Positions 3,222 through 17,827 are shown, numbered from the stretch's first letter. The stretch: DNA of 17,827 nucleotides from Thermoleophilia bacterium (GCA_017882525.1 JADGPI010000211.1:1-17827); one strand, 5' to 3'. Notes: a model not told the origin generated them from the letters alone. Program-made: numbers and translations.

Positions 3222-3277
3222 GATTCCTCCTTGCCGTCGTCGTTCGGGGCGCCACAACAAAAGGTGCGCTGCGCCGT

Positions 3278-3340: not shown

Positions 3341-5020
3341 TTACTGCTGGAGCAAGATGAGGGCGTTCCATTCGAGTTGGGCGACCTCTCCCCGGGTGAT
3401 CGGGCCGAGCGGATCGAGATCGTCGAGCGGGAGACCGGCGAGCAACAGGTTGTACTCGGCGCGCCGGGCGTTCTGCCCATGATCCGGGCTCAGACCCGTG
3501 GACCACGTGGAGTGATAGCTGGACGGGGGAGTCTTCAGCAGACCAGGGTGTAGGTCGTCAAGGCCCCGCACCACCATCGTGATGGCCTGGAACCGGGTGA
3601 TGTTGCCGTAGGGAAGGAACAATGTGGCCGTCTTGCCTTGCGTGATGTGGTGAGACGCAGCCACTGCCACGTAGTGATCCGGGTACAGCGGGTCGTTGGG
3701 ATCTACGAGATGACCGGCAGTGGTCTTCGGAACATCGGTGAAAGGAGAGACGTTCTGCTCGGAGACGGCGTAGCCGAGGGTCAGGACGACCGTCTTGGCG
3801 AACTGCTGCCGTGTGACAGGGGCGATGGGATGGAACGTGCCGTCGGTGAAGCCGCCGATGATCTTCCGGGTGGCCAACTGCACGATGGCGGCATGGTAGG
3901 CGCTGGTGGGAGGTACGTCGCTGAACAGCCAGGGCGCGGCCTTGGTCTTGAAGCTCCACGACACCGGTGCTCCCAGGATGCTCGCGCCGCTCGAACCCTT
4001 GATGGTGCCGTCCATGGTCACGATGTAGGTACTCTCGGGGTCGAGATCGGCGACGGCCTTGAGCGTAGCCGTCTTCCCGTTGCAGGTGACGTCGGCCGGG
4101 AGCGGCATGCCTCCCGATTTCTTGATGGTGAAGCTGGCCGAAGTCAGCGTGTCCTTACTGAGATCCCAATCGAAGGTCACGAAGACCCGGACGTCGAGAG
4201 GCACGTCCACGTCGCCGTCCGCGGGCGTGCGCGCGACGATCTGTGGCGGAACGGCCGGGATGGTCGTGAAAGTCCAAACGAATGGTGCTCCGAGCACGAA
4301 CATCCCGTCCAAAGCCCGAACCTCGGCGGTCATCGAGATCTGATACTTGGTGTTCTCCAGAAGCTGGGCCTGCGGAGTGAGGGTGGCGGTCCTCGTAGCG
4401 ACGTTGTAGTTGATGGCAGCAGGAAGAGGGGCGCCGCCTTGCTTCGCAAAGTGGAACGTGGAGGAAGTGAAGGTGGCCGGATCCATGTCGCTGTCGAACA
4501 CCACTGAAATCGCGGGGGCGATCGACTGGTTGACCGCCCCATCCGCCGGAGCCTGGCTGACGATGTGCGGTGGTATGGGTGGGACGGTGTCGAAGTGCCA
4601 GACGATGTCGGATTGCGACACGGACTGTTTGGTCGCCAGATGCACTCCGGTCGAGAGAGTCACGTAGTAGGTGGATCCCGCGGTGAGGCGAGCCGTGGGC
4701 GTAAGAGTGGCAGTCTTGGTGCCCAGATCGTATGTCACAGTCGCCGGCAGGGGAAATCCCGTGGCCTTGAGGACGGAGAAGTTGCCCGCGGTAACCGTGG
4801 CCGGGTCCAGGTCCTGGTCGAAAGTGATGGTAATCGCCTGGTTGACCGGGATGTCCGTTTGTCCATCGGCCGGCGTGCGGCTGATCACGTGCGGGGGCAG
4901 AACTAGGGCGGCGGCACTGGCAACCCCGCCCGATCCCATGACGCCCAAGCAAGCGAGCAGTCCTGCAAGCAGGAGCGGCGCCGCCAACCTGACGCTCCGA
5001 TTCAAGCCACACCTAACCAT
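3341..5020 (-). CDS. Secreted SLH-anchored cell-surface (S-layer-associated) protein. It has a signal peptide, four Ig-like (SbsA_Ig/Big_5-type) repeats that each begin PPH(V/I)(I/V)SxxPADG, and three C-terminal SLH domains.
   Basis: Seen in the translation: repeated PPHVISRTPADG, PPHIVSQAPADG and PPQIVARTPADG modules. The SLH signatures are FSDVPPTSAYHAAIVQLATRKIIGGFTDGTFHPIAPVTRQQFA, FTDVPKTT...ITRFQAITMVVRGL and ...GPITRGEVAQLEWNAL. The start is set at ATG 5020 (MVRCGLNRSVRLAAPLLLAGLLA, a signal peptide) because GGAGAAGGAG lies 5 nt upstream. The ORF-track start at 5089 adds 23 unlikely residues. Confidence 0.8.
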   Translation of the reverse strand: MVRCGLNRSVRLAAPLLLAGLLACLGVMGSGGVASAAALVLPPHVISRTPADGQTDIPVNQAITITFDQDLDPATVTAGNFSVLKATGFPLPATVTYDLGTKTATLTPTARLTAGSTYYVTLSTGVHLATKQSVSQSDIVWHFDTVPPIPPHIVSQAPADGAVNQSIAPAISVVFDSDMDPATFTSSTFHFAKQGGAPLPAAINYNVATRTATLTPQAQLLENTKYQISMTAEVRALDGMFVLGAPFVWTFTTIPAVPPQIVARTPADGDVDVPLDVRVFVTFDWDLSKDTLTSASFTIKKSGGMPLPADVTCNGKTATLKAVADLDPESTYIVTMDGTIKGSSGASILGAPVSWSFKTKAAPWLFSDVPPTSAYHAAIVQLATRKIIGGFTDGTFHPIAPVTRQQFAKTVVLTLGYAVSEQNVSPFTDVPKTTAGHLVDPNDPLYPDHYVAVAASHHITQGKTATLFLPYGNITRFQAITMVVRGLDDLHPGLLKTPPSSYHSTWSTGLSPDHGQNARRAEYNLLLAGLPLDDLDPLGPITRGEVAQLEWNALILLQQ

Positions 5021-5196
5021 GGCGCACTCCTTCTCCCCGTTTTTCCCTCTGAGCGCAAGGCCTGCAACCCGATGCTCGGCCAAGACCAAGTGGCAAGCTA
5101 AAGCCAGGACCTGGCGAACAAGACACTATTACTGGTCGGCGCGCCGGACTCCTGCCTGGCGATCCCGCGAGAGCGGACCGACGGGTGGCGCGTCGT

Positions 5197-6153
5197 TCAG
5201 ATACCGCAGAGCTTCGTGTCCACATAGTGGAGGGCGTGATACGCGGAGAACGCGCCACGGGCACAGGCGGTGACAACCTGTTTCAGCTCGTAGTCGCTCA
5301 CATCGCCGGCTGCGTAAAGGCCGGGACAAGAGGTCAGGCCGTTGCGGTCCACTTTGACGAAACCCTCTTCGTCGAGTTCGCAAAGCCCCTTGATGAGAGA
5401 GTTCTGCGGGTCTACGCCTACGAAGATGAACACCCCGTCGACGGGCAGAAAGTCCTCACTGCCGTCTTCAGTGGAACGCAACTTGAGGCCCGACACCTTG
5501 CCGTCCACACCCACGATCTCCTCGATGGTCCTCGACCAGTGCATGGTGATCTTCGGGTTGATGAAGCAGCGTTCCTGGATGCAGACCGTGGCCCTCAACT
5601 CTTCCCGCCGGTGGATGAGATGCACCTGGCTGGCGAACTTCGTGAGGAAGAGAGCTTCCTGGGTGGCCGCGTCGCCCCCGCCCACGACCGCCACCACCTT
5701 GTCGCGATACAGGGGCGCGTCGCACGTGGCGCACCACGAGACTCCCCGTCCTGCGAACTTCGCCTCACCGTCCACCGCGAGCTTCTTCGGCACCGCTCCT
5801 GTGGCCAGTATGAGGGCACGGGCCGTGACCTCTTCGCCGTCCAACCCTAGAACGAAGTCGCAGCCCTCCTTTTTCACGGACACGACCGGGGCAAGGGTTC
5901 TGATCTCTGCACCGGCATTCTGGGCCTGCTTCAGGAACAGATCGCCCAGCTCCATACCGCCGACTCCCTCGGGAAAGCCCGGGTAATTCTCCACCCATGA
6001 AGCGGTGACGATCTGCCCGCCGGGCAGCCCGGCTTCGTACACCACCGTGCGCGCCCTGCCTCTCGCTCCGTAGAGCGCCGCGGTCAGACCCGCGGGGCCG
6101 CCTCCCACGATGGCGATATCGACGATCTCAGCCACGTCACCCTCCACCCTCAC
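5197..6153 (-). CDS. trxB: Thioredoxin-disulfide reductase (FAD/NAD(P)-binding, with the redox-active CATC motif).
   Basis: Seen in the translation: the GGGPAG FAD motif, the WCATCD redox-active dithiol, a second Rossmann motif VVGGGDAA, and a C-terminal GLYAAGDV. The start is probably GTG at 6135 (MAEIVDIAIVGGG), with GGTGGAGGG upstream, rather than the GTG at 6153. Confidence 0.85.
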   Translation of the reverse strand: MRVEGDVAEIVDIAIVGGGPAGLTAALYGARGRARTVVYEAGLPGGQIVTASWVENYPGFPEGVGGMELGDLFLKQAQNAGAEIRTLAPVVSVKKEGCDFVLGLDGEEVTARALILATGAVPKKLAVDGEAKFAGRGVSWCATCDAPLYRDKVVAVVGGGDAATQEALFLTKFASQVHLIHRREELRATVCIQERCFINPKITMHWSRTIEEIVGVDGKVSGLKLRSTEDGSEDFLPVDGVFIFVGVDPQNSLIKGLCELDEEGFVKVDRNGLTSCPGLYAAGDVSDYELKQVVTACARGAFSAYHALHYVDTKLCGI

Positions 6154-6206: not shown

Positions 6207-7976
6207 CTACGGCACGATCTGTACCGGCGTGCCGATGTAGACGCGCGTGAAAAGGTCCTCCGCGTCGGGGATGTGCATCCGAATGCAACCATGAGAGGCG
6301 GCGGTGCCGATGCTCCAGTCCGCGTCTGTGCCGTGGATACCTATCGCCGGCGCCGAGAGCCCCATCCAACGGGTGCCGAGTGGGTTGCCCGGCCCCGGCG
6401 GCACCGGGTCCAATCCGACGGCCCAGGGAGATTTCGGGGGAGTCCAAATGGGATTGCGCACTTTCGAGATGATCTTCCAGTTTCCCACTGGGGTGGGATA
6501 GGCCGGCTGGCCGATGGCGACCGAGTACGTTTTCGCCAGTTTCCCATCAGAGAAGAGATAGAGCTTCCGCTCCGAGATGTCGATGCGGATAGAGCCGATC
6601 ATGAGAGCAAGAGCATCTGCGTTGGCTGATGTGCCCCCGGTGAGGTTTCGCGACTGGTTGAAAGCGGCCATTGCCTGCGCGGTAGCGCTGTCATAGACGC
6701 CGTTGGCCTCTCCAGTGTAGAGACCCTTCGCGGTCAGGACCTTCTGGAGCTCCACCACGTCTTTACCGGTCGCTCCCTCGCCCAGCGGCCGCGCCCCGAA
6801 GATCTCCGTGGTGTCGACCAGAAAGGTGCGATGCCAGGTCGACACGTGACCTCCGAGGTCCTGCACCGAAACGCTCACATCGTGGGTTCCCTCGGACAGT
6901 TCGCCCGTGGCCAGAAGATAGTACCTGGGCTGAGCCGCGGCGACGCTCGATGGGCTTGGCGACGTGCCGATGGTGGCAGTGGTGGACGTCGATTTCTTGG
7001 CGGTGGAAGTCTTCGCGGCCGGCTTGCCGGTCGCGGCGGGCGATGCGGTGCCGTTAGTAACGGTGCTGGTTCGGAGTAGGCTGGTATTCTGTCCGTCCAC
7101 ACTGGCGGACATCACGAGTTTGTCCGGAAAATTGTCGGCTATGGCAAGGGTGAGGGCGGCGGAGGTCTGCTTCCACGTGTCGCCCGGCCATTCTGCCTCT
7201 TGCACCGTCGGAGCCGTATAGTCGGCCCAGGCTTCCCACTCCTGGACGGTCCGATTACCCAGCGGATCAGTGACTGTGAGGGTGAATTCGTGCTTTCCCT
7301 CAGTCAGGGACAGGTCCCCTTGCACCGTCCGCCCCGCATTGACCGATGAGTCGCCCGTTGCGGAGACGGCTCCGGCTGCAGACGCCGTACTCGAAGCGGA
7401 GGAGCCGCCCAATGTCAACGCCACGTTCTTGCCATCCACGGACAGGGTCGCTGTAGCATCCTCGCTGAAGGTGGCCACGAAATGGTTCGACTTCTGGCTG
7501 AGGATCGCGAGCGGCGAAGGCGACACAACACGGACCTCGGGCGAGGTGGTATCGATCGAAAAGCTCCAAGAGCGTGACAGCCGTCGCGAGAAGATGTCCG
7601 CCGACGTGTACTCCACGGCTGCCGTATGGGTGCCGTCGGCGAGCGAAACAGTGGCCTCGGCACCGTCGGTACGCAGGGCCAGACTCGAAGCGTCAAGGGC
7701 TTTTCCGTCTACCGTTACAGTGACCGTGCCTCTGCCGGGAACGTACCCGGGAAGCGAGCACGAGATCTTGACCGAGGCGGAAGCCAAACGCGCACCCTGC
7801 TCGGGCGAGACCGCGGCCATCTGGACTGAGCGCGCGTGTTCGATCCAAACGAACCCACCCGCGGCCGCAATCAGGATGACCAGAGCCACGATGGTCCAGC
7901 CCCACCAACGGATCCGTCGCAGTCTGCCCACTCTTGCCCCGTTTTTCGGGTCGCTGACAGTAGGGCCGCGGTTCAC
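6207..7976 (-). CDS. L,D-transpeptidase family protein. It has an N-terminal TM anchor, Ig-like/Big-type beta domains, a Ser/Thr/Ala-rich linker, a peptidoglycan-binding domain (PG_binding_1) and a C-terminal YkuD catalytic domain.
   Basis: Seen in the translation: the TM helix WWGWTIVALVILIAAAGGFVWI; the PG-binding signature GATGKDVVELQKVLTAKGLYTGEANGVYDSATAQAMAAFNQSRNL; and the YkuD active-site region GIHGT...SHGCIRM. The start is GTG at 7976, although the GTG at 7931 is an alternative. Confidence 0.8.
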   Translation of the reverse strand: MNRGPTVSDPKNGARVGRLRRIRWWGWTIVALVILIAAAGGFVWIEHARSVQMAAVSPEQGARLASASVKISCSLPGYVPGRGTVTVTVDGKALDASSLALRTDGAEATVSLADGTHTAAVEYTSADIFSRRLSRSWSFSIDTTSPEVRVVSPSPLAILSQKSNHFVATFSEDATATLSVDGKNVALTLGGSSASSTASAAGAVSATGDSSVNAGRTVQGDLSLTEGKHEFTLTVTDPLGNRTVQEWEAWADYTAPTVQEAEWPGDTWKQTSAALTLAIADNFPDKLVMSASVDGQNTSLLRTSTVTNGTASPAATGKPAAKTSTAKKSTSTTATIGTSPSPSSVAAAQPRYYLLATGELSEGTHDVSVSVQDLGGHVSTWHRTFLVDTTEIFGARPLGEGATGKDVVELQKVLTAKGLYTGEANGVYDSATAQAMAAFNQSRNLTGGTSANADALALMIGSIRIDISERKLYLFSDGKLAKTYSVAIGQPAYPTPVGNWKIISKVRNPIWTPPKSPWAVGLDPVPPGPGNPLGTRWMGLSAPAIGIHGTDADWSIGTAASHGCIRMHIPDAEDLFTRVYIGTPVQIVP

Positions 7977-8194: not shown

Positions 8195-8620
8195 CTAGCC
8201 CTCGACTCTTAACTCGGCGTACGGGAACCATGTGGCTCCCCCGGCAAGCTGGACCATGGCCCCTTCATGGGTGGTCCACAGCACGACACCGGTCTTGCCA
8301 AGATACTGCGCGAGCCATTCCGGCGGGTATTTGGTCCCTGCCACAGTGTTCTTGACGATGGTCACCTTGTTGCCGGTGGTGAGGGTTTCGCGGCTGACGG
8401 TGTACGAACCGGAGGGCGAAGCGACGCTGGGGTCGCCGGCAGAGCGAGGCTCCCTCAGAAACTCGAGGGTCAGCCGGATCTCCGGGGGGACCTGCTCCGG
8501 CAGCGCCCACCTCTCGATCTCGAGAGCACCGATCACCGGCGGTTTTCCCCCTGCCCGCTCGACATAACGGACGTTGGTCTCGGTCGCTTCCTCGAGCAAG
8601 AGCACGACTGACAGCACCAT
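8195..8620 (-). CDS. Hypothetical protein (141 aa) with no family recognised.
   Basis: The ATG start at 8620 has GGGAG about 6 nt upstream. Codon usage and composition are protein-like and not R/P/G-rich. I could not assign any motif. Confidence 0.45.
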   Translation of the reverse strand: MVLSVVLLLEEATETNVRYVERAGGKPPVIGALEIERWALPEQVPPEIRLTLEFLREPRSAGDPSVASPSGSYTVSRETLTTGNKVTIVKNTVAGTKYPPEWLAQYLGKTGVVLWTTHEGAMVQLAGGATWFPYAELRVEG

Positions 8621-8731: not shown

Positions 8732-8841
8732 TGGCGTCAAGTCATTATAGGAAGATAGCGCTCCGGTGTATAAATAGTGTCTGTCTCACTGCCTGACCCG
8801 CCCGCGTTCGGTCTGATTCGACCCATTCATGAACAGTTCCG

Positions 8842-8871
8842 TTGACATTGCATGACTTACTGTGATTTAAT
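8842..8871 (+). promoter_or_regulatory. Sigma-70-like promoter of rex. The -35 element is TTGACA (8842-8847), followed by an 18-nt spacer and an extended -10 TGaTTTAAT (8863-8871).
   Basis: Seen in the sequence. It lies about 28 nt upstream of the RBS GAGGAGG (8887-8893) and the ATG at 8899. It sits in the most AT-rich stretch of the window. Confidence 0.45.
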
Positions 8872-8876
8872 TCACC
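8861..8876. promoter_or_regulatory. Rex-operator-like palindrome TGTGATTTAATTCACC (compare the Rex consensus TTGTGAA-N4-TTCACAA). It overlaps the -10 of the rex promoter, which suggests autoregulation.
   Basis: The half-sites TGTGA and TCAC are seen in inverted orientation with the correct spacing. The relevant established knowledge is the Rex operator consensus from Firmicutes, Actinobacteria and Thermus. Confidence 0.5.
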
Positions 8877-8898
8877 ATACGGAAGCGAGGAGGACCGG

Positions 8899-9627
8899 AT
8901 GGGCTCCGAAGACACAAAAGGCCGTGACCCGATCTCTCTGGAGACAGAGGCGGAAACAGCCGACCCTCCGAAGGCCCAAACGGAACGCAACAGTCGGCCC
9001 GACAAGCGAGTTTCGCTCCATACCGTCGAGCGGCTGAGCAGTTATCGGCGGATTCTGGAGGAACTCGATCATGAGGGCGTCGAGTACATCCATTCGCAGA
9101 GCCTCGCCGCCCTCGTAGGAGTCACACCCGCCCAACTGCGGCGTGATCTCGCCAGCTTTGGCACCTTCGGCAATATCTCCCGCGGCTACAACGTCTATCA
9201 GATGAGCCGGACCATTAGCCGCATCATGGGCACCGACAACGTGCAGGCGGTCGCTCTTTTCGGGGTCGGCGACTTGGGTCGGGCCTTGCTGTCGTATCGA
9301 GGCTTCGAGGAGCGAGGCTTCCAGATCGCCGTGGCTTTCGACCTCGACCAGGAGAAGATAGGACACGTCTTCGCTGGGCGTCGCTGCTATGCGCTCGCCG
9401 ATCTGGAGACGGTGGTGGCAGACTACGCCGTGCGCGTGGGAATCCTTGCGTCTAGACCTGAGGGTATCCAAGCACTCGTGGACAGGGCGGCTGCCGCGGG
9501 GGTCAGGTCGTTCTTGAACTTCGTGCCGAAGCGCGTCGCCCCTCCGCCGGGTTGTTTCGTGGAGCACATGGACATCTCGGCCAAGTTGGAGAAGCTCTCC
9601 TTTCTGAGTCGGCGGGAGGGAGAGTAG
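8899..9627 (+). CDS. rex: Redox-sensing transcriptional repressor Rex (NADH/NAD+ sensor). It has an N-terminal ~35-aa low-complexity extension, then a wHTH domain and a Rossmann-fold domain.
   Basis: Seen in the translation: a Rex-like wHTH (VERLSSYRRILEEL...LAALVGVTPAQLRRDLASFGTFGNISRGYNV), the Rossmann motif GVGDLGRAL, and the C-terminal swap-helix region. The RBS GAGGAGG lies 5 nt upstream. Confidence 0.85.
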   Translation: MGSEDTKGRDPISLETEAETADPPKAQTERNSRPDKRVSLHTVERLSSYRRILEELDHEGVEYIHSQSLAALVGVTPAQLRRDLASFGTFGNISRGYNVYQMSRTISRIMGTDNVQAVALFGVGDLGRALLSYRGFEERGFQIAVAFDLDQEKIGHVFAGRRCYALADLETVVADYAVRVGILASRPEGIQALVDRAAAAGVRSFLNFVPKRVAPPPGCFVEHMDISAKLEKLSFLSRREGE

Positions 9628-9668
9628 GGAGCGATGGGGAAAGTCAGGCGGTATTTTTTTCCTTTCTA

Positions 9669-9686
9669 TTGTGAACCGTTTCACTG
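9669..9686. promoter_or_regulatory. Rex-operator-like palindrome TTGTGAACCGTTTCACTG in the rex to response-regulator intergenic region. It lies upstream of the hydrogenase and two-component operon.
   Basis: Seen in the sequence. It matches the consensus TTGTGAA-N4-TTCACAA at 12 of 14 specified positions and lies 63 nt upstream of the ATG at 9749. Confidence 0.55.
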
Positions 9687-9748
9687 TGAAGTAGGTAACT
9701 AATGGCAGGCCAGGTTTCGGGGGCCTGCCGAAGCAGAAGGAGGAGGAC

Positions 9749-10186
9749 ATGACGACCAAAAAGATCCTCGTCGTGGACGACGACCGCGACCTCGTGGCGT
9801 CGATGGAGGCTTTTCTCGGAGCACGCGGCTTCGAAGTGGCCACGGCTCACAACGGCCGGGAGGCCTACGCGCGGATCGTGGAGAGCCGGCCCGACCTCAT
9901 CGTCCTCGATGTGATGATGGACTACGACGAAGAGGGTATGGTCTTTGCCAGCGCTCTGAAGACCGATGGGCCTACGCGAGACATCCCCATCATCATGGTC
10001 TCCGGCTTCAACGTCCAGAAGGAGACCAGAGAAAGGGTCATCGCCTCGCTCATGGGCCAGGATTGGCCGGCTGAGACGTTCTTCCAGAAACCGGTCCGCC
10101 TCGCCGACCTCGCCGCGCGCATCGACCTGCTGCTCGAGCGGGAGGAGGAACGGCACACGCCGTGGCCACTGGCGGAAGAGGCCTAG
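9749..10186 (+). CDS. Single-domain response regulator (a CheY-like receiver only), the first gene of the hydrogenase operon.
   Basis: Seen in the translation: the receiver signatures ILVVDDDRD, the phospho-acceptor D in LIVLDVMM, a conserved S (MVSG) and K (FQKPV). There is no output domain. The RBS GAAGGAGGAGG lies upstream. Confidence 0.8.
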   Translation: MTTKKILVVDDDRDLVASMEAFLGARGFEVATAHNGREAYARIVESRPDLIVLDVMMDYDEEGMVFASALKTDGPTRDIPIIMVSGFNVQKETRERVIASLMGQDWPAETFFQKPVRLADLAARIDLLLEREEERHTPWPLAEEA

Positions 10187-10692
10187 CCGTGAGCTCCGTC
10201 GCCGAGATCATCAGGGAACGCGGCCTCGCAGAGCGAGGCGAGTTTGCAACCGACCAGTTGATCCCCCTGCTTCAGGAGATACAGGCGCGGGAGGGTCACG
10301 TTTCTGAGAAGGCGATGAGCGCTCTCGCGGCCGCGCTCGACACCTCTGTCGCGCGGGTGTACGGAGTGGCGACCTTCTACAACCAATTCCGCTTCGCGCC
10401 TTTGGGCGAGCATGTCATCGAGATCTGCCGGGGAACGGCGTGCCATGTCAAACAGAGCCTGGCTCTGGCACAGCACCTCAAGCGGCGGCTCAAGCTGCGC
10501 GAGGACGGCAACTCCTCCGACGGTCGTTTCACCGTCCTCAGCGTTGCCTGCTTGGGGGCCTGCTCGATCGCTCCGGTCTTGAAGCTGGACGGCGAGTTCT
10601 ACGGCCATCTCACGCTGGAGAAACTCGACGAACTGCTGGACAACGCCGGAAGCCCGCTCCAGGTCGCTCCACAGGAAGTGAGCTTGTCATGA
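10162..10692 (+). CDS. NuoE/HndA/HydC-like thioredoxin-fold [2Fe-2S] subunit of an NAD(P)H-linked multimeric hydrogenase.
   Basis: Seen in the translation: CRGTAC (Cx4C) and CLGACSIAP (Cx3C), the 2Fe-2S motifs typical of the NuoE family. The start is either ATG 10162, which overlaps the upstream gene by 25 nt, or the in-frame GTG 10189 just after its stop. The stop overlaps the next start (ATGA at 10689-10692). Confidence 0.8.
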   Translation: MATGGRGLAVSSVAEIIRERGLAERGEFATDQLIPLLQEIQAREGHVSEKAMSALAAALDTSVARVYGVATFYNQFRFAPLGEHVIEICRGTACHVKQSLALAQHLKRRLKLREDGNSSDGRFTVLSVACLGACSIAPVLKLDGEFYGHLTLEKLDELLDNAGSPLQVAPQEVSLS

Positions 10693-12704
10693 CCGAGAGC
10701 ACGCTTGTCGTCCCTTGCTGCTCCCGCTGCACCCACACCCTCAGTAACCCTTGCAGGGACCTGGTCTACTGCATCCAGAACGGTCCGGCATGCCACCAGT
10801 CCCCGGAGTGTTCGGAGGAGCGCGGGAAACGGCGCGCGCGCGTGCTCCGCGGCGGCGAAGACATCGTCCTCTACGTGGGTGCCGGCACATGTGGTCTGGC
10901 CAACGGCGCCGCTCGGGTCATCGAGAGATCTCGAGAATACTTTGCGGCGCGCTCCCTACCGGTGTCTGTGGTGGCAGTCGGCTGCGTGGGCTATTGCCAG
11001 CGCGAAGTGTTCGTCGACATGCGAGGCCGGGATGGAGTCCGCCTCTCCTATTGCGACCTGGGCCCGGACACCGTCGCCGAGTTCCTCGAGAGCGTCTTCG
11101 AGCGCGGCGAACTGCGCAACCGGTTCCTTTACGGTCGGTACCCGGACCCGTCGAGTGCTGCCGGGGCAGGCAGCCCCAGCTACGAGGACATCCCACTCAT
11201 CGGGGAAACACCGTTCTTCGAGCGCCAGACCCGTGTGGTACTCCAGAACTGCGGCGTCATAGATCCCGGGTCTGTGGACGCGGCCCTCGCTGCCGGCGGC
11301 TTCTCCTCCGCCGTACGGGCGCTCACTACCATGACCCGCGAAGAGGTGTGCCACACAGTACTTGCCTCCGGACTTCGGGGCCGGGGCGGGGCGGGCTTCC
11401 TCACCGGGCGGAAGTGGAAGATCGCATTGGAAACCCCGCGCGCTCAGAAGTACCTCATCTGCAACGCCGACGAGGGTGACCCCGGAGCGTTCATGGACCG
11501 CGCGGTGCTCGAGAGCGACCCGTTTCGGGTGCTCGAAGGCATGCTGATCGCAGCGTATGCGATCGGCGCGAGCAAAGGTTACGTGTACTGCCGGGCCGAG
11601 TACCCGCTCGCGATCGAACGCCTGCAGGATGCCATAGACCAGTGCCGCCGGGCCGGCTTCCTGGGCACCAACATCTTCGGAAGCCTCGTCGACTTCGACA
11701 TCAGTATCAAACAAGGCGCCGGGGCATTCGTCTGCGGTGAGGAGACGGCCATCCTAGCCAGCATCGAAGGGGGCAGGGGCACGCCCCGTCCTCGGCCGCC
11801 GTACCCGGCTGTGAGCGGCCTCCATGGCAAGCCGACCGTGCTCAACAACGTCGAGACCCTGGCGAACGTCCCGGAGATCCTACGCCGCGGGGCAGAGTGG
11901 TTCCGCGACCTGGGCTTGGGTGACGCGGCCGGCACCAAGGTCTTCGCCCTGAGCGGCCAGGTGCGGAACACCGGCCTGGTAGAGGTGCCGGTGGGCATCC
12001 CGTTGCGCGAGATAGTATGCGCGATCGGCGGCGGCGCTCCTGAAGGGCACCGGCTGAAAGCGGTCCAGATCGGCGGACCGAGCGGCGGCTGCATCCCCGA
12101 GCACCTGCTGGACGTGGCCACCGACTACGGTAAACTGCAGGAACTCGGCGCCATGATGGGCTCCGGGGGCATGGTCGTGATGGACGAGCGGACCTGCATG
12201 GTCGACGTGGCCAAGTACTTCATGGAGTTCATCCGCAACGAGTCGTGCGGCAAATGCACCCCGTGTCGGGAAGGCACCACACGCATGCACGAGATTCTCG
12301 TGGCCCTCACTGAGCGGCCGGTGGGAGAAGAGATCCGCCAGCTCGAGCGCTTCCGCGGTCTCCTCCACCTTGAAGAACTCGCGGATACCATCAAGGACAC
12401 CTCGCTGTGCGGGCTCGGACAGTCCGCCGCCAACCCCGTCCTTTCGACGCTCCGGTTCTTTCGCGACGAGTACGAGGCCCACATCATGGAGAACGTCTGT
12501 CCCGCCGGCGTCTGCCAGGGCCTCCGAACGTACAGCATCGACACCTCGATGTGCACGGGCTGCACACAGTGCCGCAAGAGTTGTCCCAGCGGCGCCATCG
12601 TCGGGGAACGCAAGAAGGTCCACTACATCGTCGTCGACCGTTGCGTCGGCTGCGGGGCCTGCGCCGACGCCTGCCCCAAGCAGGCCGTCGCAGCGGTGGC
12701 TTGA
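10689..12704 (+). CDS. NuoF/HndC/HydB-like flavoprotein subunit (NADH-binding, FMN, [4Fe-4S]). It has an N-terminal thioredoxin-like domain, two C-terminal [4Fe-4S] ferredoxin domains, and an unusual ~45-aa Cys-rich N-terminal extension.
   Basis: Seen in the translation: the NuoF signatures RGGAGFLTG and ESCGKCTPCREG; the C-terminal CTGCTQCRKSCP and CVGCGACADACP; and the N-terminal segment PCCSRCTHTLSNPCRDLVYCIQNGPACHQSPEC. The ATG start at 10689 is coupled (ATGA) to the upstream stop. The upstream part of the 10440 ORF overlaps the previous gene and is not used. Confidence 0.85.
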   Translation: MTESTLVVPCCSRCTHTLSNPCRDLVYCIQNGPACHQSPECSEERGKRRARVLRGGEDIVLYVGAGTCGLANGAARVIERSREYFAARSLPVSVVAVGCVGYCQREVFVDMRGRDGVRLSYCDLGPDTVAEFLESVFERGELRNRFLYGRYPDPSSAAGAGSPSYEDIPLIGETPFFERQTRVVLQNCGVIDPGSVDAALAAGGFSSAVRALTTMTREEVCHTVLASGLRGRGGAGFLTGRKWKIALETPRAQKYLICNADEGDPGAFMDRAVLESDPFRVLEGMLIAAYAIGASKGYVYCRAEYPLAIERLQDAIDQCRRAGFLGTNIFGSLVDFDISIKQGAGAFVCGEETAILASIEGGRGTPRPRPPYPAVSGLHGKPTVLNNVETLANVPEILRRGAEWFRDLGLGDAAGTKVFALSGQVRNTGLVEVPVGIPLREIVCAIGGGAPEGHRLKAVQIGGPSGGCIPEHLLDVATDYGKLQELGAMMGSGGMVVMDERTCMVDVAKYFMEFIRNESCGKCTPCREGTTRMHEILVALTERPVGEEIRQLERFRGLLHLEELADTIKDTSLCGLGQSAANPVLSTLRFFRDEYEAHIMENVCPAGVCQGLRTYSIDTSMCTGCTQCRKSCPSGAIVGERKKVHYIVVDRCVGCGACADACPKQAVAAVA

Positions 12705-12714
12705 AAGGTCTGCC

Positions 12715-14565
12715 ATGAACGTCACGATCAACGACAAGAAGCTGCGATCCGCTCCCGGCGAGACGGTGCTCCAAGTGGCCCGCAGGGCCGGCATCAACAT
12801 CCCACATCTGTGCTCGCTCGACTGGGCCCCGTCACCCTCGGCCTCCTGCCGCCTCTGCGTGGTGGAAGTCGAGGGTATGTCCAGGCTCCAGACCAGCTGC
12901 ACCCTGCCCGCGACGGAAGGCATGGTGGTCCGCACCCACACGCCGCGCGTCCTCAAGGCGCGCCGGGCCATCGTGGAGTTGCTCGTGGCCAACCATCCGC
13001 AGGACTGCCTCACCTGTTCGCGATCCGGCAAATGCGAACTGGCCGACTTGGCCGGTGACCTCGGCGTGCGGCAGCGGCGGTACGCAGGAGTCAAGAAAGA
13101 CCAACCTATCGACATCTCTTCGCCGGCGATCTGGCGAGATCCTAACAAATGCGTGCTCTGCGGACGCTGTGTGACCATGTGCCAGCACGTCCAGGGAGTG
13201 GGAGCGATCGATTTTACCGGGCGAGGCTTCCGCACTCAGGTCGCTCCTGGTTTTTACGCGGGGCTCAACGTCTCGGGGTGCGTATACTGCGGTCAATGCG
13301 TGCGGGTCTGCCCCACCGGGGCGCTCGTCGAACGGAGCCACGTCGACGCGGTCGTGGCAGAGCTTGGCGATCCAAACACAGTGGTGGTGGCGCAGATAGC
13401 GCCGGCAGTGCCGGCCACTCTCCTGAAAGGCCACAGCAAACGGCAAGACGTCCACTCGACCCTCGAGCGGCTGGCGGCAGCGCTCAAACATGTCGGCTTC
13501 ACCGCGATCTTCGATACCTGTTTCGCTGCCGACCTGACCATCATGGAAGAGGCCACCGAGCTTCTCCAGCGGGTCCAAAAGGGCGGCGTCCTCCCGATGT
13601 TCACGAGCTGCTCTCCGGCCTGGGTCCAATTCGTGGAAACGCACCGGCCCGACCTCATCCCCCACCTCTCCACGTGCAAGTCGCCCCAGCAGATGGCGGG
13701 CGCCCTGATCAAAGAGCTTTACCCAGGCTATGCCGGACTCGACGGCAAGCGACTGGTAGTCGTGTCTCTCATGCCCTGCACGGCCAAGAAGTTCGAGGCA
13801 CAGGACCAAGGAGACGTCGATTACGTGCTCACCACCCGCGAACTGGACGCGCTGTGGGATCGTTTCGGCATCGACTTCGCTGCATTCGAAGAACAAACGC
13901 CTCTCGACCCGCCGTTTTCGGAAGCCACCGGCGCCGGTCGCCTTTTCGGCGGCAGTGGCGGGGTGATGGAAGCGGCCGTGCGAACAGCGGCCACCCTGGT
14001 GGGAGGTGACGCCGCGACGATGGAGTTGACGACCGAGGCTCGAGGTCTCGACGGCGTCAAGTGCTTCACCGTTGAGCTCGGCGGGACCACCCTGAAACTG
14101 GGCGTAATCAACGGCCTTGGCCGGCTGCGCCCGGCCCTGGACGAAGTGTTGTCGGATCTTCATTTCGTGGAAGTCATGTCCTGTCCCGGAGGGTGCGTGG
14201 GCGGCGGCGGCCAACCGTATGGCAGCGAGATCGAGGACGTGCGCAAAAGGCAGGGAAATCTCTACCAAGCCGACCTGCGTTCGGACGCCCGCGGCTCCCA
14301 CGAGAACGCCGGTGTGGCTGCCCTCTACCAGGACCTTCTGGGCCGTCCGCTCAGTGAAGTGTCGCATCACCTGCTGCACCGCGAGTACGCGGACCGAAGT
14401 GGCGGTAACGGCGATGATGCCCCCCTTTCGGCAGTGAGCGGCGCCGCGCACCATGCGGCCGACGCGGCCGCTCCGCGCGCGGCCGCAGCCCAGGCGCCCG
14501 TCCGCGAAGCCCCTTCGCTCGCAGCCGTCGGCGCGGCCGCGGCGGCCGCCGGCAGGGAAGACTGA
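12715..14565 (+). CDS. hydA: [FeFe]-hydrogenase large subunit HydA, with M3-type architecture. It has a plant-type [2Fe-2S] domain, a His-ligated [4Fe-4S], two [4Fe-4S] ferredoxin domains and the H-cluster domain, followed by an Ala-rich C-terminal tail. Its L1 motif deviates from canonical, reading TSCSPAW.
   Basis: Seen in the translation: HPQDCLTCSRSGKC (Hx3Cx2Cx5C); CVLCGRCVTMC and CVYCGQCVRVCP; the H-cluster motifs L2 MPCTAKKFE (13771-13797) and L3 EVMSCPGGCVGGGGQP (14171-14218); and L1 FTSCSPAW (13603-13623) instead of TSCCPxW. The start is ATG 12715, 10 nt after the hydB stop. The upstream part of the 12370 ORF is a GC-frame artefact. Confidence 0.85.
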   Translation: MNVTINDKKLRSAPGETVLQVARRAGINIPHLCSLDWAPSPSASCRLCVVEVEGMSRLQTSCTLPATEGMVVRTHTPRVLKARRAIVELLVANHPQDCLTCSRSGKCELADLAGDLGVRQRRYAGVKKDQPIDISSPAIWRDPNKCVLCGRCVTMCQHVQGVGAIDFTGRGFRTQVAPGFYAGLNVSGCVYCGQCVRVCPTGALVERSHVDAVVAELGDPNTVVVAQIAPAVPATLLKGHSKRQDVHSTLERLAAALKHVGFTAIFDTCFAADLTIMEEATELLQRVQKGGVLPMFTSCSPAWVQFVETHRPDLIPHLSTCKSPQQMAGALIKELYPGYAGLDGKRLVVVSLMPCTAKKFEAQDQGDVDYVLTTRELDALWDRFGIDFAAFEEQTPLDPPFSEATGAGRLFGGSGGVMEAAVRTAATLVGGDAATMELTTEARGLDGVKCFTVELGGTTLKLGVINGLGRLRPALDEVLSDLHFVEVMSCPGGCVGGGGQPYGSEIEDVRKRQGNLYQADLRSDARGSHENAGVAALYQDLLGRPLSEVSHHLLHREYADRSGGNGDDAPLSAVSGAAHHAADAAAPRAAAAQAPVREAPSLAAVGAAAAAAGRED

Positions 14566-14572
14566 GGGCCCC

Positions 14573-16696
14573 GTGGACGGCATCATCACAACCATCAAAC
14601 AGAACTGCCGCCGCTGCTTCACGTGCGTGCGCGACTGCCCGGCCAAAGCGATCCGCATCGAGGATGGCCAGGCTTCAGTGGTGACCGAACGCTGCATCGG
14701 GTGCGGCAACTGCACCATCGTCTGCTCGCAGAACGCCAAAGCGTATCTCGACAGCACCGAACGTGCGTTCTGGCTGCTCGACCGGGGCGGCACGGTCGCG
14801 GCTCTCCTGGCCCCGTCGTTTCCCGCAGGCTTCTCCGCGCCGCCCGCGCAAGTCGTCGGAGCTCTTCGGAAAGTGGGCTTCGCGTATGTGGTGGAAGTCG
14901 CATATGGCGCGGAACTCGTGAATCAGGCCTACCGCGACTACCTTGGCGAGCACCCGACAGGCGTCCACATTGCAACCGCGTGCACCGCGGTGGTCGAATA
15001 CGTGCGGAAATACCGCCCCCAACTCACCGAGCGACTCATTCCCATCGTCTCTCCCATGGTGGCGACGGCCCTTGCCGTGAAAGCTCGGTATGGCCAGCAC
15101 GTCCGCTGTGTGTTCATTGGGCCTTGCGTGGCGAAAAAAGGTGAGGCACGGTACCCCGGAGTTGTGGGAGTCGTGGATGAAGTCCTCACGCTGACCGAGG
15201 CGACGACCGTGCTCACCGCGCGCGGCATCGACCCGGCGCAAACCCCCGCCAGCGACTTCGACCCCCCGTTCGCGGGAGAAGCCCGTGTCTTTCCGATCCC
15301 CGGAGGAATGCTGGAAAGCGCCCGATTGGGCGGCGGGATCCTCGACCCGGAGCTGATCGTGGTAAGCGGTCACGACGAGACCATCCAGGCCCTTGACGCG
15401 CTCCCCGAGGGTGAGACCGACAAGGCATTGCTGGTGGAAGCCCTCATGTGCAACGGCTGCTATTGCGGACCAGGGGTGCAGACCCTGGAGCCGGCCGTGA
15501 TGCGCAAGCGCCGGGTGATCGAGTTCGCGGCCGACAGCCTTCGCCGGCAGGGATCCGGAGAGCTGCCTGCCTGCGATGAGACGGATACCTCTCTTTGGCT
15601 CGGTCGTGAGTACACCTCCGACGACCGGCGGTACGACCAGCCGAGTGAAGAGAAGATCCGGGAGATCCTGGCCCGCACCAACAAGTTCTTCCCCGAAGAC
15701 GAGCTCAACTGCGGAGCCTGCGGATACCCCACCTGCCGCGCCAAGGCCACCGCGGTGGTGAGCGGCATGGCGGAGGAAGCCATGTGCCTGCCGTTCATGA
15801 TCGAGCAGGCCGAGCGGGTCTGCCACGAGCTTCGCGTGCCGTGGAAAGACCTGCGTGAAGTGCACCGCCACCTCATCAACACCGAGAAGCTGGCTTCGAT
15901 GGGGCAGATGGCGGCCGGCGTCGCCCACGAGTTGAACAACCCACTCAGCAGCATCCTGCTCTACTCCCACATCCTGGGGCGCAAGCTCGAGGACCGGCCC
16001 GACCTGAGCCACGACCTCAAGCTCGTCGCCGACGAGTCGGAGCGCTGCAAGAAGATCATCGGCAACCTACTCGACTTCGCCCGGCAAACCCGGGTGCACA
16101 TCGAAGCGGTCTCGATCGATGAACTCGTTCGCTCGGCCGTGGACGCGGCCGCATGCAACTTGAGCCCCGGCCCTGGCGGGGCAACCGCGGGCGGCGCCGG
16201 GCGGAACGGCGCGGGGCCGCATGGACCGCGCTCTGGCGGTGGGGTGGAGCTCACACTCGAAGTGACCCCTGGGCTGCAGGCCGACCTGGACCGCGATCAG
16301 ATGACGCAGGTTCTAGTCAACCTCCTCAAGAACGGAGTCGAGGCCATGGAGGGCCGCACCGGCGTCGTGAAACTGTCGGCATATGAGATTCCCGAGCAGC
16401 ATCGGGTCCACTTCGCGGTCAGCGACCAAGGGTGCGGCATCCCAGGCGGCGCTCAGGACAAGGTGTTCCAGCCGTTCTTCACCACCAAGAGCATCGGCAA
16501 GGGAACAGGCCTTGGTCTTCCGATCTCGTACGGCATCGTGAAGATGCACGGCGGCACCATCTGGTTCGAGTCCCAACCCGATCAAGGCACCACTTTCCAC
16601 GTGGAGATCCCCATAACCCATGCGGCCGGTGAGAAGCCCATGACGACAGAGAAGCCCTTCTTACCGAACCAACCTCCCAAGGAGTATGTGATATGA
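14573..16696 (+). CDS. Sensory-type (HydS-like, group C-like) [FeFe]-hydrogenase domain fused to a histidine-kinase transmitter. The order is two [4Fe-4S] ferredoxin domains, a divergent H-cluster domain, a Cx2Cx4Cx16C motif, then HisKA (H-box HELNNPL) and HATPase_c. It is a putative H2-sensing histidine kinase.
   Basis: Seen in the translation: CRRCFTCVRDCP and CIGCGNCTIVC; an H-domain that aligns colinearly with the adjacent HydA (TACTAVV for L1, GPCVAKKGE for L2 and EALMCNGCYCGPG for L3); NCGACGYPTC...x16...C; AAGVAHELNNPLSSI; and the N/G boxes LLKNGVEAM, DQGCGI and GTGLGLPIS. The start is set at GTG 14573, 8 nt after the hydA stop. The ATG at 14453 would add a 40-aa P/R-rich segment overlapping hydA. 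The stop overlaps the next start (ATGA at 16693-16696). Confidence 0.8.
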   Translation: MDGIITTIKQNCRRCFTCVRDCPAKAIRIEDGQASVVTERCIGCGNCTIVCSQNAKAYLDSTERAFWLLDRGGTVAALLAPSFPAGFSAPPAQVVGALRKVGFAYVVEVAYGAELVNQAYRDYLGEHPTGVHIATACTAVVEYVRKYRPQLTERLIPIVSPMVATALAVKARYGQHVRCVFIGPCVAKKGEARYPGVVGVVDEVLTLTEATTVLTARGIDPAQTPASDFDPPFAGEARVFPIPGGMLESARLGGGILDPELIVVSGHDETIQALDALPEGETDKALLVEALMCNGCYCGPGVQTLEPAVMRKRRVIEFAADSLRRQGSGELPACDETDTSLWLGREYTSDDRRYDQPSEEKIREILARTNKFFPEDELNCGACGYPTCRAKATAVVSGMAEEAMCLPFMIEQAERVCHELRVPWKDLREVHRHLINTEKLASMGQMAAGVAHELNNPLSSILLYSHILGRKLEDRPDLSHDLKLVADESERCKKIIGNLLDFARQTRVHIEAVSIDELVRSAVDAAACNLSPGPGGATAGGAGRNGAGPHGPRSGGGVELTLEVTPGLQADLDRDQMTQVLVNLLKNGVEAMEGRTGVVKLSAYEIPEQHRVHFAVSDQGCGIPGGAQDKVFQPFFTTKSIGKGTGLGLPISYGIVKMHGGTIWFESQPDQGTTFHVEIPITHAAGEKPMTTEKPFLPNQPPKEYVI

Positions 16697-17145
16697 GCAC
16701 CGCATGGACCATCCTGTTCGTAGACGACGATCGCGATTTTCTCCAGGCTCAAGCCGCCTATTTCGGGAGCCGCGGCCACGAAGTGCTCACTGCGGCGAGC
16801 AGCAGTGAAGCCATGGAGACTTTGGATGTCACCACCCCGGACATCATCTTCTTGGACCTGATGATGGAGCGCTTCGACAGCGGCTTCCGGCTTGGCTACG
16901 AGATCCGCAAGCGCGAGCGCCTAACCGACACGCCTATCGTCATGCTGAGCGGAGTGGCCGCGGCGACCGGGGAGCGGTTCAGCGACGAGGCCGACGGCCT
17001 TCGCTCGTGGTCGCGGCTCGACCGTTTCATCGACAAACCGGTGACTGGGAAGCAACTGTTGAGCGTTGCGGAGGAGCTGCTAGGCGGCTGCGATACGCAG
17101 GGCTGCGGCTTGAACCAGTGCCGGACGCCCGGCGGCACGGCGTAG
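16693..17145 (+). CDS. Single-domain response regulator (receiver only) that is paralogous to the 9749 receiver and carries a Cys-rich C-terminal tail (CDTQGCGLNQC).
   Basis: Seen in the translation: ILFVDDDRD, IFLDLMM, MLSG and FIDKPV, which align residue by residue with the first receiver. It is translationally coupled to the kinase gene. Confidence 0.8.
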   Translation: MSTAWTILFVDDDRDFLQAQAAYFGSRGHEVLTAASSSEAMETLDVTTPDIIFLDLMMERFDSGFRLGYEIRKRERLTDTPIVMLSGVAAATGERFSDEADGLRSWSRLDRFIDKPVTGKQLLSVAEELLGGCDTQGCGLNQCRTPGGTA

Positions 17146-17166
17146 GGACGAGGCGAGGGGGAAAGA

Positions 17167-17827
17167 GTGACGACCGTGATCCCTGCCAATATCCTCGTAG
17201 TGGACGACGAGTACGGAGTCCGGACGGGCATCAGACAGATCCTCGAGCTCGAGGGCTACAACGTGGACGATTGCGACACCGGGGAGAAGGCGCTCGCGTT
17301 GCTCGAAGCCAACGACTACGATGTCGCCTTACTCGACTACCGGCTGCCCGACATCGACGGGTTGATGCTGTTACAGGCCATCAAGCGCAACGACCTGCAG
17401 CCCATGACCTGCATGATCACGGCCTACGCCAACATCGACACTGCCATCGCCGCTACCCGCCAGGGGGTGGATTTCTTCCTGCCCAAGCCATTCTCGCCCG
17501 AGGACCTTATCGGCGTGGTGCAGACGCTCGCGCGCCACAAGCAGGCCCGGGTGGAAGCCGAGCGGTTGCGCCGCGAGCACGAAGCTGGCCTCCTCGCACT
17601 CGCCGAAGAGAAGACGCAGACGCACTCACTCGTCTCCTCATTGCGGGACGCGGTGCTGGTGGTAAACCGCGAAGGCGACGTGGTACTCGCCAACCGGGCC
17701 ATGACCTCCCTGCTCGGGATCGCCGAAGACCGGGTGCTACGGCGGCCCGCCCAAGAAGTCCTTGCCCAGGGGCCGCTCGCGCCGCTGGCGGGAAAACTGG
17801 CCGCGCCAGTCAAGGATAGGACTGTGA
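17167..17827 (+). CDS. Partial CDS running off the window end: a response-regulator receiver domain followed by a PAS domain. The C-terminal output or transmitter is not visible.
   Basis: This is my own translation of the frame-1 ORF, which is absent from the supplied track because it has no stop in the window. The receiver reads VTTVIPANILVVDDEYGVRTGIRQILELEGYNVDDCDTGEKALALLEANDYDVALLDYRLPDIDGL...CMITAYANIDTAIAATRQGVDFFLPKPF, and the PAS-like segment reads LRDAVLVVNREGDVVLANRAMTSLLGI. The start is GTG 17167 or 17176, after GGGGGAAAGA. The 17007..17819 (+) ORF listed in the track is an R/G-rich artefact in another frame. Confidence 0.65.
   Translation, partial: MTTVIPANILVVDDEYGVRTGIRQILELEGYNVDDCDTGEKALALLEANDYDVALLDYRLPDIDGLMLLQAIKRNDLQPMTCMITAYANIDTAIAATRQGVDFFLPKPFSPEDLIGVVQTLARHKQARVEAERLRREHEAGLLALAEEKTQTHSLVSSLRDAVLVVNREGDVVLANRAMTSLLGIAEDRVLRRPAQEVLAQGPLAPLAGKLAAPVKDRTV

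Follow-up and report, generated by a model that had tools for sequence, protein, structure and literature searches.

The Thermoleophilia bacterium contig JADGPI010000211.1 (assembly GCA_017882525.1) carries a plus-strand locus of eight genes in which the regulator gene rex, the genes of a trimeric [FeFe] hydrogenase (hydC, hydB and hydA) and a gene for a hydrogenase-like protein fused to a histidine kinase (HydS-HK) are packed together with genes for receiver (REC) proteins. The locus runs from position 8842 to the end of the 17,827-nucleotide (nt) stretch of DNA analysed here (the window; G+C content 62–69%). A cassette of rex, hydCBA, hydS-HK, a receiver gene and a receiver–histidine kinase gene (REC-HK) recurs across many phyla, and in the window the genes from rex to REC-HK are best explained as one regulatory-plus-structural unit of a Thermoleophilia-like actinobacterium. 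We think it probable that this unit is controlled in two layers, with Rex as the first and, as the second, an H2-sensing HydS-HK that would signal through a REC-PAS-HK protein to stand-alone receivers. An earlier reading of the same DNA from its sequence (hereafter the original prediction) had likewise proposed a Rex layer and an H2-sensor kinase layer, and domain content, gene order and conserved operator-like boxes uphold it.

Domains called with Pfam and NCBIfam in the window proteins give the gene order rex, REC1, hydC, hydB, hydA, hydS-HK, REC2 and a receiver-PAS gene (REC3-PAS), just as had been predicted, with the following features:

8842–8871, plus strand: putative rex promoter, with −35 TTGACA (8842–8847), an 18-nt spacer and a TGn-extended −10 TTTAAT (8866–8871)
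8860–8877, no strand assigned: predicted Rex operator 1, CTGTGATTTAATTCACCA, three mismatches, covering the −10 element, 22 nt before the rex ATG
8899–9627, plus strand: rex, 242 amino acids (aa), PF06971 and PF02629, NCBIfam NF003995 at 195 bits against a cutoff of 126
9654–9690, no strand assigned: surroundings of operator 2, with a T7 run (9654–9660) and an extra, overlapping TGTGAA half-site (9685–9690)
9669–9686, no strand assigned: predicted Rex operator 2, TTGTGAACCGTTTCACTG, two mismatches, 80 nt before REC1
9749–10186, plus strand: REC1, 145 aa, PF00072 only, with DD, D54, S85 and K114 present
10162 or 10189 (both GTG) to 10692, plus strand: hydC, NuoE-like [2Fe-2S] protein, PF01257 (E = 1e-43) and NuoE/HoxE models
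10689–12704, plus strand: hydB, NuoF-like subunit for flavin mononucleotide (FMN) and NADH, PF01512, PF10589 and Fer4, NuoF_pre_CCxxC NF040902
12715–14565, plus strand: hydA, catalytic [FeFe] subunit of the trimeric A3/‘A6’ type, PF02906, PF13510, PF10588 and PF02256
14573–16696, plus strand: hydS-HK, 707 aa, two Fer4, Fe_hyd_lg_C, the PF04060 iron–sulphur domain, HisKA and HATPase_c
16693–17145, plus strand: REC2, 150 aa, PF00072 only, with D55, S86 and K115
17167 (GTG) to 17827, plus strand: 5′ part of the REC3-PAS gene, 220 aa, REC and PAS by Pfam, running off the window end

The tight packing claimed for this operon is plain from its junctions: ATGA overlaps join hydC to hydB at 10689 and hydS-HK to REC2 at 16693, the remaining junctions measure 2–21 nt, and the sole wide gap is the 121 nt between rex and REC1. 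Terminator-like sites between 8000 and 17827 are not in excess (four, against a shuffle mean of 5.6). Rfam matched zero families over the whole window, so no riboswitch or leader RNA accounts for the 121-nt gap.

Homologous loci were collected by scanning one genome per species, and the best 80 among the matches listed, all in metagenome-assembled genomes, bear more than 15 phylum-level labels. These include Actinomycetota/Thermoleophilia/Gaiellales, Myxococcota, Syntrophobacterales and other ‘delta’ groups, Planctomycetota including Ca. Kuenenia, Hydrogenedentota, Bacteroidota, Verrucomicrobiota/Lentisphaeria/Kiritimatiellota, Acidobacteriota, Sumerlaeota, Fibrobacterota, Spirochaetota, Elusimicrobiota, Melainabacteria, Chloroflexota, Clostridia, WOR-3 and others. 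Each of the top 120 database clusters combines PF02906, PF04060, PF00512 and PF02518, and many are labelled Thermoleophilia. In layouts drawn by tblastn of the window proteins on 81 loci, with 10 kb to either side of each, a REC-(PAS)-HK gene lies within 1.2 kb downstream of hydS-HK in 68 of the 69 loci with room for one; a receiver-only gene directly adjoins hydS-HK in 57 of 69 loci, hydA is directly upstream of it in 54 of 61, and rex is part of the locus in 47 of 81.

The receiver-only open reading frames (ORFs) beside hydS-HK are about 125–185 aa long nearly everywhere among the 81 loci, the few longer ones being read-through ORFs. The REC2 type is the widespread orthologue, just downstream of hydS-HK in 55 cases and just upstream in nine; its DDD, LDLMME, W and K are conserved across phyla, as are the phospho-acceptor residues of both REC2 and REC3, and an exact-sequence look-up of REC2 returned no record. 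The position of REC1, between rex and hydC, is occupied mainly in the window's clade and in a few other metagenome-assembled genomes (11 loci when counted by adjacency to rex; 15 receivers upstream of hydC when counted by position). Further stand-alone receivers are located 3′ of REC-HK in 16 loci. REC1 and REC2 are clear paralogues, as the original prediction held (37% identity over 117 aa, E = 2e-18, with DDDRD, LDxMM and MxSG aligning), and REC3 is distant from both. That the two paralogues bracket the structural genes, also claimed, is true of the window but of almost no genome outside its clade.

Two related contigs carry the receiver-PAS gene further than the window does. In the first (L002, 4.1 kb, collinear and 96% identical in DNA) it runs on into HisKA before the contig end, and in the second (L001, 126 kb, with the same gene order from rex through REC2 and a hydS-HK 73% identical to that of the window) its orthologue encodes a 484-aa REC-PAS-HisKA-HATPase_c protein and is followed by convergent MMPL genes. 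The module thus comprises two kinases and three receiver domains. The ‘three receivers, one kinase’ of the original prediction was wrong, an effect of the window ending at 17827 within the front of a hybrid kinase, and the output that it had expected for the receiver-PAS protein beyond that point is a histidine kinase. The usual REC-HK is a protein of about 375 aa with no PAS domain, the PAS form being that of the window's clade and a few others.

A DNA-binding receiver was found neither in the window nor in L001, the 81 tblastn layouts or ten sampled downstream genes (hydE, hydG, ribF, an MFS transporter, a REC-Ser/Thr kinase or unknown), so that the lack of a DNA-binding output domain, first noted for the window, extends beyond it; the only DNA-binding regulator seen where we checked is Rex. 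With all three receivers devoid of a DNA-binding domain, this is not a classical two-component pair, and its content (two kinases, one of them with an N-terminal receiver, plus receiver-only proteins) is that of an output-less multi-kinase relay. A likeness to CheY-type systems had been suggested, but no chemotaxis features stand behind it (CheA, CheW and MCP domains are absent from the window and L001, and both kinases are HisKA-class), and only a functional analogy remains.

Homologues of HydS-HK all begin M-x-G-IITTIKQNCRRC, which places its true start at GTG 14573, seven bases past the hydA stop, and not at ATG 14453. We aligned it with homologues of 62–99% identity (20 in all; residue positions in A1 numbering), and the eight Cys of its two N-terminal [4Fe-4S] motifs are invariant in 20 of 20. 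Equally invariant are C138, C186, C294 and C297 of the H-domain (PF02906, E = 1.5e-38), C381, C384, C389 and C406 of a Cx2Cx4Cx16C cluster (PF04060, E = 1.3e-10), and the phospho-His 453 of the H-box AHELNNP. Among the catalytic motifs, P1 is degenerate (ATACTA, or ATSCPA in the wider family) with a single invariant Cys; P2 reads GPCVAKK, in which GPC replaces MPC and GPC-x2-KK-x-E, including the Lys and Glu, is invariant; and P3 reads EALMCNGC, with both Cys of LMCNGC invariant. Aligned by the family profile, the motifs match P1 and P2 of the HydA encoded in the window, and P3 weakly (score −1.6). The H-cluster ligands are retained, the proton-relay Cys (C299 of CpI) is lost, and the positions of M353 and M497 are altered; loss of C299, changes at M353 and M497 and a C-terminal cluster are the criteria for the putative sensory group after Land et al. 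(PMC8163306). We assign HydS-HK to the putative sensory group C type, kinase-bearing forms of which the literature puts in both C1 and C3: HydDB describes group C1 as ‘histidine kinase-linked (putative)’ (PMC5037454), and a study of Hydrogenedentota places the histidine kinase-bearing T subunit of a Caldithrix-type ‘BfuCBA-T’ in C3 and other HATPase-bearing proteins in C1 (PMC11406978).

Like TmHydS (group C, M2f) and TamHydS (group D, M2e), HydS-HK has two N-terminal [4Fe-4S] clusters, no C299 and a Cx2Cx4Cx16C motif, and is encoded beside a bifurcating-type hydrogenase; the M353 position is Gly as in TmHydS and the M497 position Leu as in TamHydS (PMC8163306). Unlike in TmHydS, the cluster domain leads directly into HisKA-HATPase_c: the 707 aa contain no PAS domain by Pfam, HisKA comes next after the cluster and about 45 residues separate the last cluster Cys from the phospho-His, so HydS-HK does not have the TmHydS (M2f) architecture. 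The kinase core is nearest to LvrB (PDB 8vc9, the best solved match), ZraS and AtoS. A sequence search for a solved group C hydrogenase structure returned none, and we found no biochemically characterised kinase-fused HydS within the literature searched. Between its DHp and ATP-binding domains, the window protein has a Gly/Ala/Pro-rich insert (GPGGATAGGAGRNGAGPHGPRSGGG; about 25 aa; ~16380–16460, residues ~530–555) that it shares only with a 98% twin (P0001) and that the 18 other homologues lack.

HydS-HK might not sense H2 at all but serve as an additional subunit, catalytic or redox-sensing (‘BfuT’), whose iron–sulphur clusters report how heavily HydABC or ferredoxin is loaded with electrons. 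Its place beside hydA (the 54 of 61 loci above) and its three accessory clusters would suit such a role, such proteins have been treated as the T subunit of the Bfu cluster and the H-cluster motifs of some group C proteins questioned (PMC11406978), and the role of the C-terminal cluster has been stated to be unknown (PMC8163306). We nevertheless regard this as quite unlikely: the four H-cluster Cys positions and the P2 Lys and Glu are invariant in the 20 homologues, TmHydS and TamHydS, its characterised relatives, have been shown to bind an H-cluster and to react with H2 (PMC8163306), and hydS-HK and REC-HK occur without hydCBA in two loci. In those loci (L012, 8727–13666; L035, 9310–13094) rex, (REC1,) hydS-HK and REC-HK stand in a row, which indicates that the sensor module can exist apart from the structural genes.

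The rex product has both the winged-helix domain and the Rossmann NAD(H) domain of its family, the latter with GVGDLG (GxGxxG); it also has an N-terminal extension of about 35 aa, and a GAGGAGG ribosome-binding site lies 5 nt before its ATG. A search of the whole 17.8 kb for TTGTGAAN4TTCACAA with at most three mismatches, with 200 shuffles as control, returned exactly two matches (chance expectation 0.14; two were reached in 2 of 200 shuffles), and both fall in the two relevant intergenic gaps, before rex and between rex and REC1. The original prediction of a Rex-operator-like palindrome on the rex −10 element and a second operator before the gene string is borne out well beyond chance. An inverted-repeat search, at the settings used, did not list the boxes. 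Across 11 aligned upstream regions the operator 1 half-sites CTGTGA/TCAC are invariant and TTGAC is unchanged amid unconserved flanks, these being the only conserved elements there; a consensus promoter scanner missed the rex promoter because its −10 lacks A at position 2. Around operator 2, in an alignment of nine loci, the T7 run, the box and the TGTGAA half-site stand at a fixed distance before REC1 and are kept in most loci within otherwise unconserved sequence, and the box lies 70–93 nt 5′ of REC1 in L001, L003, L004, L006, L010, L013, L014 and L045. More widely, a box occurs no more than 260 nt 5′ of the rex match for 31 of the 45 rex genes in related loci, and over the 81 loci box density is 3.3 per kb upstream of rex against 0.09 per kb overall, a 37-fold difference.

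It is true that the two palindromes carry three and two mismatches and that two hits also arise in 2 of 200 shuffles. That they are chance matches or sites of another regulator is very improbable all the same, given that both lie in the only two relevant gaps, that orthologous positions are kept while flanks diverge, that boxes are so enriched 5′ of rex and that rex is encoded in cis. We predict that the two palindromes are Rex operators, the family and the operators being assigned by sequence and comparison, and that Rex would bind them. In six loci from several phyla, tandem Rex boxes stand exactly 17 nt apart 5′ of rex (L024, 6120/6137; L030, 5065/5082; L042, 3828/3845; L043, 4631/4648; L049, 1141/1158; L077, 4864/4881), which suggests cooperative binding by two Rex dimers.

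The structural genes have the composition of a trimeric HydABC enzyme: HydA has an H-cluster domain and iron–sulphur domains (N-terminal iron–sulphur domains, H-domain and small-subunit-like tail), HydB is the FMN/NADH subunit with extra clusters (N-terminal CCxxC prefix, NuoF core and C-terminal 2x[4Fe-4S]), and HydC is NuoE-like. HydA scores 674 bits against NF040763 (‘NADH-dependent [FeFe] hydrogenase, group A6’), under the cutoff of 765. Among solved structures it comes closest to T. kivui HydA1 (8a6t, E = 2e-151), then to HydA of A. woodii (7q4v) and T. maritima (7p5h; E values to 2e-121), all three from bifurcating enzymes, and domains and solved relatives together confirm the bifurcating-type composition proposed earlier. 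The P1 motif of HydA (13603–13617, residues 297–301) reads TSCSPAW, with Ser in place of the second Cys of the TSCCP found in CpI, T. kivui and T. maritima; A. woodii HydA1 (7q4v) has TSCSPGW, like the window HydA. The C-terminus of HydA (~14410–14565) is an Ala-rich low-complexity tail of about 50 aa past the small-subunit-like domain, where the solved relatives do not align.

In the two-layer scheme that we favour, Rex would repress the operon at low NADH, and a rise in NADH would lead to derepression, upon which the HydABC-type enzyme could dump reducing equivalents as H2. In the second layer, H2 would reduce the H-cluster of HydS and would be reported through the redox state of the C-terminal Cx2Cx4Cx16C cluster, as in slow sensory-type [FeFe] hydrogenases, and the state of this cluster would act through a helical linker on DHp and so set the autophosphorylation of HydS-HK. 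The phosphoryl group would most likely pass from HydS-HK to the NtrC-like REC3, switching the PhoR-like second kinase, which would in turn phosphorylate the PhoB/DivK-like REC2 and, in the window's clade, REC1. The DHp helix of HydS-HK is almost invariant across loci. An AlphaFold2 model of HydS-HK built on the 20-row alignment, of low confidence (mean predicted local distance difference test score, pLDDT, of 65, with linker, DHp and N-terminus below 50), draws the linker of about 45 residues as mostly helical, and was not used for the mechanism.

We infer this relay order (HydS-HK to REC3 to second kinase to REC2, with REC1 here) from three considerations. A sensor-less kinase with an N-terminal receiver implies an upstream kinase, and HydS-HK is the sole other kinase in the module; the second kinase must itself have a substrate, for which the receiver-only proteins are the evident choice; and the classes match, since HydS-HK resembles AtoS/ZraS and REC3 is nearest to NtrC/NtrX/AtoC receivers, as the second kinase is nearest to PnpS/PhoR/WalK and REC1 and REC2, among NCBIfam receivers, to PhoB, DVU0259/DivK and PleD. 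As no DNA-binding receiver lies in the locus, the output would be either protein–protein contact of the stand-alone receivers or an unlinked regulator.

The latter, an orphan NtrC- or OmpR-type DNA-binding regulator that takes phosphate from one of the kinases while the local receivers modulate flux, is possible, though we doubt it. It would agree with the absence of a DNA-binding receiver in or beside the cassette in the inspected loci, ±10 kb each, and with the partners of related kinases, which are sigma-54 activators for AtoS/ZraS and OmpR-type regulators for PhoR/WalK. However, that the two kinases and the receiver-only proteins are so strictly linked across phyla suggests a self-contained module, and no candidate orphan regulator was identified within the same ±10 kb per locus. 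It is rather unlikely, in our view, that HydS-HK phosphorylates REC2, REC1 and REC3 in parallel, in a branched or phosphate-sink arrangement where the stand-alone receivers act as drains or buffers of phosphate and shape how the REC-HK branch responds. The ATGA overlap that couples translation of REC2 to hydS-HK, one locus (L021) that retains hydS-HK and REC without REC-HK, the 16 loci with extra stand-alone receivers past REC-HK and the lack of any Hpt or output domain in the module all speak for such branching. Yet a REC-HK whose H-box and ATP-binding domain are both intact must have something of its own to phosphorylate, class similarities pair REC3 with HydS-HK and REC1/REC2 with the second kinase, and there is no CheA, CheW or MCP context.

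Several points weigh against the two-layer scheme or parts of it. The class pairing depends on small score differences (for REC3, E = 5e-20 with NtrC and 7e-17 with PhoB), L021 lacks REC-HK, and about 12 of 69 loci, or about one in six, have no adjoining stand-alone REC, so that direct transfer from HydS-HK to REC2 or a branched scheme is equally allowed. With pLDDT below 50 in the linker and DHp, only sequence spacing speaks for ‘direct helical coupling’. Neither the promoter scan nor the alignment yielded a sigma-70-like promoter at operator 2, and the HydABC composition is common to bifurcating and non-bifurcating NADH-dependent enzymes. A further step, which we consider improbable, would make rex, hydS-HK, REC and REC-HK a self-contained integrator of H2 and NADH in which REC2 (and REC1 here) contacts Rex or HydABC directly. 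If REC2 acted on Rex, H2 and NADH would converge at the same operators and Rex would be the module's real output; if it acted on HydABC, it would be a post-translational brake on the enzyme.

Myxococcus RedCDEF and Leptospira LvrAB are multi-kinase, output-less phosphorelays. The cassette resembles them in having two kinases plus receiver-only proteins, one sensor-less kinase with a receiver and no DNA-binding domain in the operon; the inputs differ, and common ancestry is unsupported beyond the shared domains. In [NiFe] regulatory hydrogenases, a slow sensor governs the HoxJ/HupT kinase and thence hydrogenase expression via NtrC-type HoxA/HupR. There, as in the cassette, a sensor hydrogenase is tied to a histidine kinase, but the two metal centres have no relation to each other, the [NiFe] sensor and its kinase are distinct proteins and the output binds DNA, whereas the cassette has no such output. 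The [NiFe] regulatory hydrogenase is group 2b of HydDB (PMC5037454).

Closer parallels have been described, and the rex-hydCBA-hydS(kinase) cluster, its Rex box and the idea of dual Rex/HydS control are all already known (PMC5317091, 10.1101/765248, PMC11406978, PMC10084766). In Caldithrix abyssi, rex lies upstream of trimeric hydrogenase genes with a predicted Rex box, cTGTGAATCAATTCACAt, 38 bp before it, and a reading of repression at low NADH and a Rex consensus have been given (Kublanov et al., PMC5317091). The window is like that locus (Cabys_3675-3679) in having a box of the form cTGTGAAnnnnTTCACAn some tens of bp ahead of a rex gene that directly precedes hydCBA-type genes, and in the predicted repression at low NADH/NAD+ of an enzyme for NADH-driven H2 production (PMC5317091). 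The C. abyssi paper leaves the kinase and the receivers undiscussed (PMC5317091); what sets the window apart is its second operator, the presence of REC1 between rex and hydC, and the PAS domain of its hybrid kinase. Méheust et al. noted in Elusimicrobia that group C hydrogenases with a fused kinase HATPase domain occur beside a trimeric group A enzyme, with Rex nearby (10.1101/765248). The window shares with these (lineage V) and with the ‘Sub-type V’ BfuCBA-T of Hydrogenedentota/Calditrichota a kinase-bearing group C protein beside a trimeric A3 enzyme (PMC11406978; 10.1101/765248), and our scan recovered Hydrogenedentota (L021, L024 and L051) and Elusimicrobiota (L076) loci as homologues. 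Neither paper describes the conserved pair of REC and REC-HK or puts forward a signalling scheme, and the window, by contrast, is actinobacterial and adds REC1 and PAS. For R. albus and Solidesulfovibrio, Rex and HydS have been proposed to control bifurcating hydrogenases jointly (PMC10084766). The literature that we searched yielded neither an account of the conserved pair of REC and REC-HK nor phosphotransfer data. How sensory [FeFe] hydrogenases relay their signal is an acknowledged open question (PMC8163306). Syntrophobacter fumaroxidans Sfum_0843-0848 was considered as an instance of the cassette and rejected, as Sfum_0847-48 is a periplasmic hydrogenase.

The layouts hold further variation. 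The maturase genes hydE and hydG directly follow REC-HK on the same strand in Ca. Kuenenia (L080, 8681–11159), Victivallales (L030, 13600–16099) and Bacteroidales (L025, 15995–17422), and in the window's clade (L001, L004) the operon ends at REC-HK. Six Bacteroidota loci (L025, L032, L048, L056, L063 and L082) have a second, divergent hydS-like gene 5′ of hydC, and rex after REC-HK; this double hydS layout agrees with the ‘two bfuT’ clusters described earlier (PMC11406978). Thermoleophilia and some other groups (L039, L041, L062, L065, L072 and L047) also carry a second type of cassette, about 42% identical to the window, which places REC, hydS-HK, REC-HK and REC between two different hydB-hydA sets. 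In a Verrucomicrobiota locus (L050, 14168–15526) a receiver–Ser/Thr protein kinase fusion lies just 3′ of the cassette, past an extra stand-alone receiver.

Upstream of rex, the window holds the following genes and signals:

535–1470, plus strand: MIP channel
1569–2783, minus strand: encapsulin (Linocin_M18, N-terminal DUF5661)
2919–3260, minus strand: EncFtn-like encapsulated ferritin (PF22277, E = 7e-35), preceding the encapsulin as its cargo pair
3341–5089, minus strand: wall protein with three Big_5, CopC and SLH
5197–6153, minus strand: thioredoxin-reductase-like flavoprotein
6207–7976, minus strand: YkuD L,D-transpeptidase with PG_binding_1
8195–8620, minus strand: ORF of 141 aa with no Pfam match, divergent from rex
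8744–8772, minus strand: sigma-70-like promoter TATACA-17-TATAAT, in the gap common to this ORF and rex

A Thermoleophilia-like actinobacterium is consistent with the SLH domain and also with the closest relatives.

Taken alone, the window is one more example, an actinobacterial one, of a known but biochemically unexplored cluster type and does not establish a new principle. What the analysis chiefly adds is the comparative result that a sensor-less REC-HK and a receiver-only protein nearly always accompany the kinase-fused sensor, whereas no DNA-binding partner did so in any of the material checked. This narrows the question of HydS signalling to a phosphotransfer problem among four proteins, and it extends the cassette, together with predicted Rex autoregulation, to uncultured soil and sediment Actinomycetota (Thermoleophilia/Gaiellales), where H2 metabolism is ecologically relevant.

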